Position numbers and translations under genes: made by a program. A stretch of DNA of 62,968 nt, filler included, from Octopus bimaculoides (taxonomy: Eukaryota): NCBI RefSeq assembly GCF_001194135.2. It is 5 parts of 5 records of this genome, joined end to end, with 100 filler letters (N's around TTAATTAATTAA, not from the genome) between each part and the next. Parts side by side here need not be neighbours in the genome. Positions count along the whole stretch, not along the records: positions 1 to 22,094 come from NC_068981.1; positions 22,195 to 33,793 come from NC_068996.1; positions 33,894 to 41,952 come from NC_068992.1; positions 42,053 to 52,239 come from NC_068987.1; positions 52,340 to 62,968 come from NC_069005.1. One strand, written 5' to 3'. Shown here piece by piece: positions 8,240 through 55,790 of this stretch. The notes beneath the pieces were generated by a model. That model did no database searches. It worked only from the letters and a program-made list of their open reading frames with translations, and had not been told where the DNA came from. The stretch's first letter is position 1, and each line of letters opens with the position of its first letter.

Positions 8240-8290
8240 ATGTCTGAAGAAATGGTCGTGTCTTCACGACCACGAAAATTTCGCAACATT
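8240..8290 (+). ncRNA. Degenerate hammerhead-like motif
   Basis: CTGAAGA, then a perfect 8-bp hairpin tggtcgtg-tctt-cacgacca, then GAAA; stems I and III do not pair cleanly. Confidence 0.3.
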
Positions 8291-9369
8291 AGTTAAGTGA
8301 ATCCTGTAACTCCACACTAACACACACACACATACATGTAAGTATGATTATGTATGTGTATATATCTATATATCTATATCTATATCTATATATATAATAT
8401 ATATATATATATATATATATANNNNNNNNNNNNNNNNNNNNNNNNNNNNNNNNNNNNNNNNNNNNNNNNNNNNNNNNNNNNNNNNNNNNNNNNNNNNNNN
8501 NNNNNNNNNNNNNNNNNNNNNNNNNNNNNNNNNNNNNNNNNNNNNNNNNNNNNNNNNNNNNNNNNNNNNNNNNNNNNNNNNNNNNTGTATGCATGTGTCT
8601 ATGTATGTATGCAAGCGCGCGCGCGTTTGTGTGTGTGTGCGCACGCGTGCGTAATTAAATTTATAACTGTACATTCCGAAAATGCAAAAGACTATTATTG
8701 TACTACGTTAGCATTATCGCAAGGACATACTGGGCAGTTGCCTATGGTCCTGAAATTAAAATTAAAAATTGAAAATCAAGTTCGCTATTGTGCTGTTATT
8801 GACTTTTTCTATTTTACATTTTTTTTTTTTCTTTCACATTCACAGTATTTTCTATCCTGGTAATAACCTTTTACTATTATACTCTTGACTTCTGCTCAAA
8901 ATTTTTCATTCAGATGATGACCAGATACATAAATATAGGAAGATATGTCGTATGTATGTAGAATGCATTTCCTGACTCTTTCATCCACAGATATAAGCAC
9001 TTGCAAACACACCCACTTACACACACACACTCACACATACACACACACACATACACATTGAAACAGACACACACGCAAACACACACACACATTCACACAC
9101 AGACTCACACACACACACTCACACACACACACAAATGCATACAGACATTGTCTCTCTCACACACGCACATTGAAACAGCCACACACGCAAACATACACAC
9201 ATTCACACACACACACACACACTCACACACACACACAAATGCATACAGACATTGTCTCTCTCACACACGCACATTGAAACAGNNNNNNNNNNACACACAC
9301 ACACACACACACACACACACACACACACACACACACACACACACACACAAACTAAAATCAAAAATCTAG

Positions 9370-11477
9370 CACCCCTGAGCGAAAATGTATTACTCACCTA
9401 TCGGAACCGTTTCGCATCGCACGCTCTGTCTGTCAGAGGTGACGAATAAGGTGGCCAGTTTTACCCAGAAATGGGCAGAGAGGAAGCTGTACCTGAAAGG
9501 TCGGGCAAAGGTGGAGAGTACCTACATCGCTTCCGTCATCATTTATCGCCTGATTGTCGTCCTTTGCACCAGTTACTGCTTGATAAGGTTGGAGTGTCTC
9601 ATTTGTTTTCTTGTGAAAGAGACGTGTTCTAATGGTCAGGCGGTCAGTGTGCTTCCAGTACCCTCTGCGTAGCAGCTTAGGTATACCATAGCTTCTAATG
9701 CGCAAACAAGCTCTCAGGTTGCGTCACCTGCAACGTTTTCTGGATGGCGAACGTGTGTGGGCTCCCTTTGGGAGACACATCTTTCTGCTGCTCGTCTCTT
9801 TGATGAAGCTGCAATCTTGAGTGCAGGATAGACCGAGACGGGACGCCTAGCATCCAGAATGTCATCAGGCACTCACAGTCCGCTACGAGTTAGACAATAG
9901 GATCGGTAGAAATTCCACTTTAGCAATATAGAGAGGATTAGCAGCAGGGAAGTGCGAAGACATCTCAGGGAGACTCTTGGCGTTTACAAAAACTACCTAG
10001 CCAGTCTGTTCCGGAGGATTTTCCGGTCGAGGACTATCATAGATAATTTCCAGATGTCCTTGCCCTGACAGTATTACCGGTGGGGGTGAGACTACCGGTT
10101 CAAAATAAACTCTGCAGATACGGATGTGCTATCAAAATAAACTCTACAGACATGGATGTGCTATCAAAATAAACTCTACAGACATGGAGGTGCTATCAAA
10201 ATAAACTCTACAGACACGGATGGGCTATCAAAATAAACTCTACAGACACGGATGGGCTATCAAAATAAACTCTACAGACACGGATGGGCTATCAAAATAA
10301 ACTCTACAGACATGGAGGTGCTATCAAAATAAACTCTACAGATACGGATGTGCTATCAAAATAAACTCTACAGATACGGATGTNNNNNNNNNNNNNNNNN
10401 NNNNNNNNNNNNNNNNNNNNNNNNNNNNNNNNNNNNNNNNNNNNNNNNNNNNNNNNNNNNNNNNNNNNNNNNNNNNNNNNNNNNNNNNNNNNNNNNNNNN
10501 NNNNNNNNNNNNNNNNNNNNNNNNNNNNNNNNNNNNNNNNNNNNNNNNNNNNNNNNNNNNNNNNNNNNNNNNNNNNNNNNNNNNNNNNNNNNNNNNNNNN
10601 NNNNAAATAAACTCTACAGACATGGAGGTGCTATCAAAATAAACTCTACAGATACGGATGTGCTATCAAAATAAACTCTACAGACATGGAGGTGCTATCA
10701 AAATAAACTCTACAGATACGGATGTGCTATCAAAATAAACTCTACAGACATGGAGGTGCTATCAAAATAAACTCTACAGATACGGATGTCAGAGGTGAGC
10801 GCAGAGCAACGAAACCGTTCTACTTGCACTCGTTCAATGTCCGGACATAGCTGACTTATAGGGTTATGCCGAACAACTTCTGTCGCGTGTGGAACAGATC
10901 CGTCTGTCGGCCGAGGCTATCGCTATGATTTCCCACCTCTCTCCTTTAATTGAGCAGGAAAGGCAGTTTTCCCTTGCCTGGTGTCTGTGACAAAAGAGGT
11001 TATGTGGTGGACGATGCTGAAAGGCATGAGGACAGAGACATTCCTCTTTGGTAGAACCCTCATTGACTTGAAAAGGAAAGTGACGGTGGAGAGGTAGATG
11101 CTGTACTCGAGTGAATTTATTAAAAGGTGGGTGGAAGTTGCGAAAATGGCAAGAGTGGATGATACCGCACTAAGTTTAGACCTGTGAGACAGAGAAAAGT
11201 AATTGGAGAGGGCACTTTCCCTTGGTGTTCAGGGAGATCTTGGACGGTGGGGCTCCTCGATTATACCTAAAGGTCCTCCTGTATCACGAGGACCACGTTA
11301 CTATCATCCTTTTTCCTTTCTTTTCTTTTACTGTTGTTTATTATGTATACTTCCCGCCTTTGTTTTATTGTATACCGTGTATACTTTTAATCGTTTCATT
11401 ATATGTAAATCCCCATAATTTATGTCTGCTTTTGTATTATCCTCTTTATCCTTTACCCTGCAGACAAATAAAAGAAA
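9370..11477 (+). mobile_element. 5'-truncated Tx1/L1-clade LINE (ORF2 C-terminus, 3' UTR, tail)
   Basis: QKWAERKLYLKGRAKVESTYIASVIIYRL; LPVQNKLCRYG; zinc-knuckle remnant ETVLLALVQCPDIADL*GYAEQLLSRV; T-rich 3' UTR ending AATAAAAGAA before (CAT)n. Confidence 0.8.
10101..10788 (+). repeat. 32-bp minisatellite (CAAAATAAACTCTACAGAYAYGGAKGKGCTAT), spanning an N gap
   Basis: About 9 units before and about 6 after the gap at 10384-10604, counted directly. Confidence 0.95.
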
Positions 11478-11710
11478 TCATCATCATCATCATCATCATC
11501 ATCATCACATTCATTATTATTATTATTATTATTATTATTATTATTATTATTATTATTATTATTATTATTATCATTATTATTATTATTATTATTATTATTA
11601 TTATTATTATTATTGTTGTTGTTGTTGTTGTTGTTGTTATTATTATTATTATTATTATTATTATTATTATTATTATTATTATTATTATTATTATTATTAT
11701 TATCATCATT
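11478..11710. repeat. Compound (CAT)n(TAT)n(TGT)n microsatellite
   Basis: Visible trinucleotide runs. Confidence 0.95.
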
Positions 11711-12109
11711 ATCTTTCAATTTTGTTTCTATTTCTTGTTGAATGTCTTCTCGACGCTTAGAGCAAAAAAACAAACTCGCTGTACACATTGGTAGGCTATT
11801 AAAATAAAGACACTAGATTGTTCATTTTCAGACTCGTGTGATAGAAAAAAAAAGAGGAAGAAAGACAGAGAGAAAAAGGAAAGAAAAAATGAAAACAAAG
11901 GAAATAAAGGGGGAAAAGAAAGAAAATTCACAGTGACAATGCTCTTCTCAATGCGTGTGACGTACCAGTTAAGACAATCTTTTGCACTTCCTGCTTGGAT
12001 GTTAAGCCAGAGATCATCCTCAAATAATTTTTATTTCCTTTTTTGATCATTCCAAGTTCTCCTACAATCACTGATATTGTAATCGTCTTGAGATGCCAAT
12101 TATTATTAA

Positions 12110-54179: not shown

Positions 54180-54785
54180 TTTGATCTTTTACTTGTTTCA
54201 GTCATTAGACTGCGGCCATGCTGGAGCACCGCCTTTAGTCGAGCAAATCGACCCCAGAACTTATTCTTTGTAAGCCTAGTACTTATTCTATCAGTCTCTT
54301 TTGCCGAACCGCTAAGTTACTGGGACGTAAACACACCAGCATCGGTTGTCAAGTGATGTTGGGGGGGACAAACACANNNNNNNNNNNNNNNNNNNNNNNN
54401 NNNNNNNNNNNNNNNNNNNNNNNNNNNNNNNNNNNNNNNNNNNNNNNNNNNNNNNNNNNNNNNNNNNNNNNNNNNNNNNNNNNNNNNNNNNNNNNNNNNN
54501 NNNNNNNNNNNNNNNNNNNNNNNNNNNNNNNNNNNNNNNNNNNNNNNNNNNNNNNNNNNNNNNNNNNNNNNNNNNNNNNNNNNNNNNNNNNNNNNNNNNN
54601 NNNNNNNNNNNNNNNNNNNNNNNNNNNNNNNNNNNNNNNNNNNNNNNNNNNNNNNNNNNNTATATATATATATATATATGTATATATATATATACAACGG
54701 GCTTCTTTCAGTTTCCATCTACCAAATCCACTCACAAGGCTTTGGTCGGCCCGAGGCTATAGTAGAAGACACTTGCCCAAAGTGC
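54180..54785 (-). mobile_element. SINE B copy (gap-interrupted) in a DNAH2 intron
   Basis: Family B pattern on the minus strand. Confidence 0.88.
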
Positions 54786-54849
54786 CTTTGGTAAGAAAAA
54801 AATCGCACTTACTTCAAAATTGATGCCATATATAAAATGAAGGATTTAC

Positions 54850-55200
54850 AACACCTGTGTTCTTCCAGTAGCTTTATATGGGCCAGAATGTGTCAACTGG
54901 ACTTCTGGTGCACTACAGAAACTGGAAGTCTTTCAGAATCATGGAATGCAACTTATTACTAACACCAAATTCTCAGACTATGTCAGAATTGAAGATTTAA
55001 GGCAAATAACCAAAGTGCCATCAGTTACCCCTGTCATCAAAAATAAAGAGCACATATGGTTTGGCCTCACTAAGAGAATGGTTTGTAGCGTCGGCAAGGT
55101 CTGTTTGGAAGGTGTGATTAATGGAAAGAGAAACTGAGGTTGGTAACCTAAGAAACGGAGAGGTAGCACCACAGCATGGTTAGGTCTTATCAGAATGTCC
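54850..55200 (+). mobile_element. RTE LINE C-terminal remnant
   Basis: LYGPEC..LEVF..WFGLTKRM..LEGVINGKRN*G..KKR matches the RTE LYG.E.W..WFGH..LEG.V.GKR.RGRP pattern. Confidence 0.7.
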
Positions 55201-55409
55201 CTGAACACTCTTGCCAAAGTTTGAATACTATGGCGGCAACTATGTTGTGCTGGTGCACATTCTTCTGCAAGCAATTAGTAGGAATTGTCTATCAAGTTGA
55301 GCAACCTCATAGAAGAATGTAAATCTTCTTGAGTTTAGAAATTTCTTCATTTAATTAAGAAATTCTTGCTTCCAGAAAAAAAAAAAAAAAAAAAAAAAAC
55401 CATTGGAAA

Positions 55410-55790
55410 ACCGATTCTAGCAGTGACTCCATCTAAGAATATCTGAAGAAGGAATTTTATTCCGAAATATCATCAGACTATGGATGACTAAATTACAACG
55501 CGTATATAGCCCATTGTTTGTATTATAGTGTATTGTTGTACCATTCAAAACTTTTTATTCTTTACAAATAATAATAACAATAATAATAATAATAATAATA
55601 ATAATAAGTTTATAGCAGAGATTCCATCTAAGAGGATCTGAAGAAGGAATTGTAATTCCGAAAGATCATTGGACTATAGATAACCAAATTACAACAGGTG
55701 TATAATCCATTTTTTGTTTTATAGTGCATTGTTGGACCATTCAAAACTTTTTATTGTTTACAAACAATGCACAATGCTTCAAGTGAACTA
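55410..55790 (+). ncRNA. Tandem dimer (195-bp period), each unit with a degenerate minimal hammerhead
   Basis: CTGAAGA-a-ggaat(ttt or tgta)attcc-GAAA-(T/G)ATC-at(c/t) at 55443-55473 and 55638-55670. Confidence 0.55.

Follow-up and report, generated by a model that had tools for sequence, protein, structure and literature searches.

The stretch of Octopus bimaculoides DNA analysed here (62,968 nt, hereafter the window) was examined for hammerhead ribozymes and for the Penelope-like retroelements to which they very probably belong. It is composed of five parts joined by N44-TTAATTAATTAA-N44 linkers and contains 59,775 non-N bases. Nine hammerhead motifs, referred to by the position of C3, are present at 8244(+), 16931(-), 18316(+), 37523(-), 37711(+), 50222(-), 50283(+), 55443(+) and 55638(+). 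All nine had been pointed out in a preliminary description of the window and were recovered where it had placed them, in four of the five parts (1, 3, 4 and 5). They represent only five sites, paired motifs being the two arms or units of single insertions, and they sort into four or five families, in line with the at least three unrelated families proposed earlier. Five of the nine are intact; 50283, 55443, 55638 and 8244 are damaged. The coordinates of all features are given in Table 1.

Table 1. Hammerhead motifs, the elements that carry them and other transposon remnants in the window
Feature	Coordinates	Strand	Basis
Broken hammerhead of minimal type, with core and 8-bp helix II preserved and the helix I partner shifted by 4 nt	8239..8290	+	sequence; fails all structured descriptors
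3'-end fragment of a second repeat family in inverted orientation, next to (TA)n and head-to-head with the Hydra-clade remnant; ends approximate	16820..16983	-	summed depth
Hammerhead, 53-nt helix II domain, palindrome ACAGCUGU	16855..16936	-	descriptor, folding
Decayed remnant of the GIY-YIG endonuclease from a 5'-truncated Penelope-like element of the Hydra clade	17429..17866	+	Pfam, HMMER, tblastn, motifs
High-copy 3' terminus (pseudo-long terminal repeat-like) of the Hydra-clade element, adjoining (TG)n(TA)n; end position approximate	18172..18425	+	depth jump at 18172, alignments
AGCU-family hammerhead with a 4-bp helix I and a 7-bp helix II standing on an A.G mismatch; palindrome ACAGCUGU; cleavage predicted 3' of 18355	18312..18359	+	descriptor, folding, loose read ends
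Head-to-head inverted insertion; 154-nt arms 97% complementary, central (AAT)n	37424..37810	.	sequence, folding
Minimal hammerhead, GAAA-CG-UU, no loop III, left arm	37483..37528	-	descriptor
Minimal hammerhead, right arm, identical to left	37706..37751	+	descriptor, folding
Head-to-head inverted insertion, AGCU family	50114..50396	.	sequence, folding
Intact AGCU-family hammerhead; helix II stands on an A.A mismatch	50179..50226	-	descriptor, folding
Hammerhead, AGCU family, damaged: G at position 17 (cleavage), helix II mismatch	50279..50326	+	descriptor, alignment
Tandem of 1.8 direct units with a 195-bp period and 85% likeness, separated by (AAT)n	55415..55768	+	sequence
Minimal hammerhead with AUAU palindrome and a helix I of just 2 bp	55441..55473	+	descriptor, folding
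Minimal hammerhead with 3-bp helix I and non-palindromic helix III	55635..55670	+	descriptor, folding
Mariner transposase remnant	2481-3567	-	
Pif1 helicase remnant (Helitron-like)	35183-35680	-	
Reverse transcriptase remnant of a long interspersed nuclear element (LINE)	62573-62941	+	

An extra A after A9, ascribed to most motifs in the preliminary description, was present in eight of the nine (16931 lacks it). At 37 and 55 kb it accompanies the G10.1-C11.1 pair; the 16.9 kb motif has U-A at this pair. The motifs 18316, 50222 and 50283 form the AGCU family (~80% alike over 117 nt), in which a 7-bp helix II stands on an A.G or A.A purine mismatch where G10.1-C11.1 is expected, and the extra A opposes a second unpaired purine before GAAA. 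Comparable deviations from G10.1-C11.1 are present in published Hydra-clade hammerheads. The 16.9 kb motif had been grouped with these three but proved to be separate: no homology with the 18.3 kb end was found beyond the core, the common part being GAAA plus the palindrome. The motifs 37523 and 37711 are textbook loop-less minimal hammerheads. The two motifs at 55 kb are also loop-less, and both fail the strict descriptor. The copy at 8244, rightly called degenerate in the earlier account, possibly represents a fifth family. Between the two or three copies available per family, helix II stems are retained while the loops differ.

The bare core pattern occurred 16 times in the window, against means of 4.2-5.1 (maximum 10-11) in 150 shuffles. 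An initial structured descriptor found three motifs (0.007-0.03 in shuffles) and missed 18316 and 50222 because a spare purine precedes GAAA. Later descriptors were widened to allow this purine, with the motifs already in view, and were scored against 500 local dinucleotide shuffles. The strict type I descriptor accepted five of the nine motifs, against a shuffle mean of 0.01 (maximum 1), and relaxed descriptors accepted seven (0.042; maximum 2) and eight (0.236; maximum 3). Other bare-core matches, at 3108, 42595, 42661, 50688, 61672, 62562, 62003 and 52238, failed all structured descriptors. No Rfam hammerhead model matched the motifs, whether the full window or two short stretches of it were searched, and no pattern matches were found in metagenome or viral contigs, collections not expected to contain octopus DNA. 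A search for variant cores (U3-A8, one mismatch) and permuted topologies gave only two AT-rich and two weak 4-bp matches, which were rejected. Chance matches in AT-rich, hairpin-rich repeats, or inverted duplicates created by the assembly, might be suspected, as shuffled windows contain the bare core four to five times, the 37 kb arms are identical over ~130 nt and the assembly is gappy. Against this stand the excess of structured motifs over shuffles and the recovery of the AGCU family in reads and contigs of all four runs compared, from two organisms, with homology breaking at the ends of helix I. This explanation is accordingly given almost no weight: it is refuted for the intact motifs and possible for 8244 only. 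The motifs are real and well above chance.

The 18.3 kb motif lies ~450 bp downstream of a GIY-YIG endonuclease remnant and 112 nt before a microsatellite. The remnant carries a CxCX5C linker, a CxH near its end and one in-frame stop that is absent from most other copies, but no CCHH; the CxxC ahead of the conserved E is decayed in this copy. The frame at 17384-17755 gave a weak Pfam match to GIY-YIG (E 6e-4, under the curated cut-off), and none of 27 candidates from a word-indexed protein search with the endonuclease was significant. HMMER identified 762 relatives at E<=0.001, and tblastn matches between the remnant and proteins with reverse transcriptase (RT) and endonuclease gave E-values of 1e-13 to 2e-19. 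The named close relatives were from Octopus sinensis and Argonauta hians. The long relatives consist of an RT and a C-terminal endonuclease with RWK, DKT, YRDD and CxCX5C; the RT motifs, carried by P0135, P0149 and P0166, were read by eye, as Pfam did not recognise this RT. RT has been lost from the truncated 17.0-18.4 kb copy, and RWK and DKT were seen only in the long relatives.

Craig et al. 2021 (PMC8557442) characterise the Hydra clade of Penelope-like elements by a C-terminal GIY-YIG domain with a CxCX5C linker and no CCHH, together with RWK, DKT and YRDD. Hydra-clade hammerheads are described as lying ~100-200 nt from the 3' end, often with an unpaired pair under helix II and with an ACAG/CUGU-A helix III. 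The 18.3 kb motif shows all three of these traits; its helix III is that of Penelope-1_NV and Penelope-1_SK, and an unpaired U.U was counted by us in 14 of the 26 Hydra-clade rows. The unit also has in common with Hydra-clade elements the C-terminal GIY-YIG, the CxCX5C linker, the lack of CCHH and (TA)n on both sides (16696-16817 and 18439-18471). The 18.3 kb motif likely belongs to a Hydra-clade Penelope-like element, and the link to Penelope suggested at the outset is direct for the AGCU family (18.3, 50.2 and 50.3 kb). The 18172..18425 stretch is common to the 50 kb arms at 79.5% identity. The same paper describes a hammerhead-bearing O. bimaculoides element of this clade, Hydra-1_Obim, from which the 18.3 kb family differs in both hammerhead row and endonuclease. 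Five short motif strings from the window were found at no place in its supplement, where line breaks can hide matches. A direct repeat of 67 nt (16657-16720 and 18401-18470), made up of (TG)n(TA)n and ~25 nt from the 3' terminus of the element itself, encloses the complete 16.8-18.4 kb unit and may be a long target duplication, an extra tail or a local duplication.

The region 16822-18432 was compared, at 80% likeness, with contigs or reads of 4 of the 24 runs listed, from two organisms. In DNA contigs of run X1, summed depth was 477,733 in the ribozyme bin, 25,000-46,000 in the flanking pseudo-long terminal repeat (pLTR) bins, ~2,000 over the endonuclease and ~11,500 over the 16.9 kb family. 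Run X14, from the second organism, had a similar profile (194,068 over the ribozyme versus 1,000-1,600 over the endonuclease). The AGCU ribozyme stretch was thus ~200 times deeper in contigs than the endonuclease; summed depth is no copy number, and the seven single X1 contigs listed had depths of 25-50. As rough orders of magnitude only, ~10^4 copies of the AGCU family, a few hundred of the 16.9 kb family and tens of the endonuclease are indicated, which agrees with the earlier expectation of thousands of copies genome-wide. Loose read ends clustered at both termini of helix I (18312 and 18359), indicating that the AGCU ribozyme is better kept than its flanks. At 18340 in run X22, 44 reads of one other copy had U in place of the A after A9, and the base of helix II can therefore also be U.G in this family. 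At 18348 in the same run, 34 RNA reads ran leftward from the palindrome as a near mirror image of the downstream sequence; they represent a copy folding back at helix III.

The inverted 16.9 kb piece sits at the 5' end of the Hydra-clade unit. Summed depth was ~11,000-28,000 over 16820..16983 and dropped to 100 past 16983. Among the differences listed between this copy and the majority of others, three (16888, 16892 and 16916) are inside the 53-nt helix II domain. In the predicted long hairpin they affect one G.U pair and two bases without a partner, and at each of them the majority letter would make a Watson-Crick pair in helix II. A match to the 'HHR_half_core' of octopus Naiads was considered and rejected: the 3' ends of Naiad_Obim and Naiad_Ovul differ and, in the supplement of PMC8557442, have GAAA ~25 nt ahead of CUGAUGA, in permuted order, with no clean helix III readable by eye.

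The insertions at 37 and 50 kb are both head-to-head pairs whose 3' ends point outward, which is the usual Penelope truncation-inversion pattern. As single transcripts they were predicted to fold into one long hairpin each (-285 and -209 kcal/mol, respectively), so that the pairs would form long hairpins and not dimers in cis. The 50 kb site probably falls within an intron of a gene for a voltage-sensing phosphatase, as an exon at 49235-49450 matches this protein (E 8e-8) and a next exon-like frame was seen by eye near 50944. Further inverted-repeat elements, with no hammerhead core, were observed at 21049-21518 (around (TA)n(ATA)n), 49634-49869 and 41069-41282; these may be related to miniature inverted-repeat transposable elements or be ends that lack a hammerhead.

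The direct pair at 55 kb may be retrozyme-like or a partial pLTR tandem. It is likely sense-oriented in an intron of a dynein heavy chain gene, with a matching exon at 55827-55955 (E 7e-8) and the other flanking exon judged by eye. A LINE-like 3' remnant recognised by eye at 54841-55200 (+), which we take to be of the RTE type, is followed by a poly(A) run at 55376-55399 that stops 16 nt before the pair. Some families, this one above all, could be non-long terminal repeat retrozymes, that is, protein-free tandem units cut from one hammerhead to the next into a circle of ~195 nt and reinserted by Penelope enzymes. Retrozymes (PMC7229834; bioRxiv 10.64898/2026.07.22.740005) likewise have tandem type I hammerheads; the two direct units have an equal start, their 195-bp period is within the 170-400 nt range of PMC7229834, and the 2026 preprint derives retrozymes from pLTRs. 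However, there are only 1.8 units, 85% alike, both motifs are damaged, and they are minimal where reported retrozymes have canonical hammerheads (PMC7229834). A local duplication of one pLTR would account for the pair too. A retrozyme origin is therefore considered possible but rather unlikely, and it can coexist with an origin of the motifs from Penelope pLTRs.

When two copies of 18316 or 50222 were cofolded, the dimeric hammerhead came out lowest in energy (-31 kcal/mol), its helix III being an 8-bp duplex between the two molecules; the monomeric hammerhead fold of these motifs was 3.5-4.6 kcal/mol above the lowest-energy fold. The 15.1-16.1 strand is self-complementary in four of the five motifs folded, and the dimer was lowest in energy in two of the five. 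Self-cutting as dimers is thus predicted by folding; the in vitro activity of minimal hammerheads of this type has been reported to be low.

Expression was assessed with ~6% of each of the RNA runs X21 and X22, of which 575/12,895,792 and 415/11,974,664 records, respectively, were placed on 16822-18432. Only two (X21) and one (X22) of these reads were 99% alike to the window copy. The 18.3 kb ribozyme was covered on both strands at similar depth, and many reads crossed the predicted cut. No pile-up of read ends was observed at 18355 in either run, the only one being at 18184; fragmented cDNA is a weak test of cleavage, in which small circles would go undetected and cut ends may be lost. This pattern fits passive read-through of many dispersed copies. 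Takeover by the host, with the motifs cutting or regulating pre-mRNAs such as those of dynein and the voltage-sensing phosphatase, would accord with the two sites in likely introns and with the appearance of AGCU family members in RNA reads. But the sense-strand copies in both introns are damaged (50283, 55443 and 55638), and the reads were few, from both strands and nearly all from other copies, with no end pile-up at the cut in the 18.3 kb family, the one for which this was assessed. Such a role is regarded as very improbable.

The explanation that best fits these results, and which is held with considerable confidence, is that the minimal type I hammerheads are the 3' ends (pLTRs) of several Penelope-like families, present across the octopus genome as mostly 5'-truncated, often inverted and decaying copies. 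For the 8.2, 16.9, 37 and 55 kb families the Penelope link is suggested by anatomy only. From known Penelope biology, reverse transcription would start at the 3' end of the RNA, at a nick in a microsatellite, and would usually stop early or switch strand, so that far fewer copies are made of the gene than of the end with the ribozyme. Where a tandem element is intact, pairing of two hammerheads via the palindromic helix III would lead to cleavage of the precursor RNA into unit-length pieces. Solo and inverted remnants would then be mostly inert by-products, the former because they have no partner in cis and the latter because the motif is buried in a hairpin of 130-150 bp.

Several observations weigh against this explanation. 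No compensatory changes were found among the two or three window copies per family. No contig of another copy spanned both endonuclease and ribozyme, among 16 of ~7,600 pieces. A perfect microsatellite lies within 150 nt downstream of only three of the nine motifs, plus one within the tandem, versus 19% of random places in a window that is rich in microsatellites. No endonuclease or RT remnant was found by tblastn, with 161 relatives of one endonuclease and other clades not searched, beside the 8.2, 37, 50 or 55 kb motifs, although its absence is expected near short truncated ends. Finally, the dimer was not the lowest-energy fold of the loop-less motifs 37711, 55443 and 55638, so that the dimeric cleavage through a palindromic stem III put forward earlier is predicted for the AGCU family but not for these three. 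The earlier notion of self-cleaving units throughout the genome was overstated: most units are likely dead 5'-truncated remnants, given the four damaged motifs, the masking of the ribozyme in inverted pairs and the lack of read ends at the cut.

The octopus hammerheads are of a described kind, at least one family being of the Hydra clade, and do not constitute a new system; the previously suggested unannotated ribozyme ecosystem is unannotated in that no Rfam model matches, but the system itself is known (PMC4209133, PMC8557442). Cervera & de la Peña 2014 (PMC4209133) report, for metazoan Penelope minimal hammerheads, that an additional base follows A9, that helix III is palindromic and that animal genomes contain thousands of copies. 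They also describe pairs on opposite strands at distances of 100-700 bp, and a truncated element whose 5' end carries a further hammerhead in inverted orientation. Similarities to the window motifs include CUGANGA-H, G10.1-C11.1 (at 37 and 55 kb), GAAA-N-palindrome-NUH and a short helix I, together with mostly solo copies, some on opposite strands, and the presence of many families in one genome. Their consensus is directly matched by the motifs at 37 and 55 kb. The AGCU loop recurs in the Drosophila willistoni row, whereas the A.A or A.G in place of G-C under helix II sets the AGCU family apart, as the 53-nt helix II domain does the 16.9 kb family. An extra A before GAAA is shown by one row of Fig. 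S3, probably Cotesia by row order, the layout being uncertain. A search of one supplement file of PMC4209133 gave neither 'octopus' nor 'cephalopod', and the main text of the 2026 retrozyme preprint lacks 'octopus'. 'Hammerhead' and 'ribozyme' were absent from the main text of two octopus repeat papers (among PMC6765202, PMC6962438, PMC13282606 and PMC8967140), one octopus repeat paper listing 31 recently active Penelope-like families in O. vulgaris. No survey of octopus or cephalopod hammerheads, and no report of the helix II mismatch, was found in the open-access literature searched.

What is new are these families, the purine-purine mismatch under helix II and the family with the 53-nt helix II domain, and possibly also an unusually high hammerhead density. 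Both helix II variants may already be included in the work of Lünse et al. 2017. Octopus families are thereby added to the described class and provide natural variants for testing the tolerance of the base and length of helix II. As Rfam misses these motifs, Rfam-based counts, such as the 235 Hammerhead_1 loci of the giant squid, are likely to be underestimates. Extrapolation from the window, which was singled out for its motif density, gives 134 motifs per Mb (8 motifs/59.8 kb; 95% range 58-264) and 84 sites per Mb (27-195). Published counts are ~2,000 + 1,300 in Schistosoma mansoni, 4,000 in coelacanth, 9,000 in Xenopus tropicalis, >6,000 in Acropora and up to 120,000 in axolotl (the last two from PMC7229834). 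A much bolder scenario is that octopus hammerheads number ~10^5, at several times the densities implied by published counts, and that both variant folds are active. Solo copies would then pair in trans across families, because unrelated families have the ACAGCUGU palindrome in common, and cut pre-mRNAs, and inverted pairs would feed double-stranded RNA editing. This scenario is judged unlikely. If density and cross-family dimers were borne out, the octopus would be a good place to settle the in vivo role of Penelope hammerheads.

Apart from the transposon remnants in Table 1, the window contains an intron-less open reading frame of 590 aa (5017-6786, +) with RING and bromodomain regions, 92% identical to an Octopus vulgaris protein. 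Its close relatives were confined to three matches, two of them from named octopods, and it is possibly a retrogene. Minisatellites of 32 bp and 38 bp, at 10100-10789 and 24511-24716, respectively, extend into assembly gaps.

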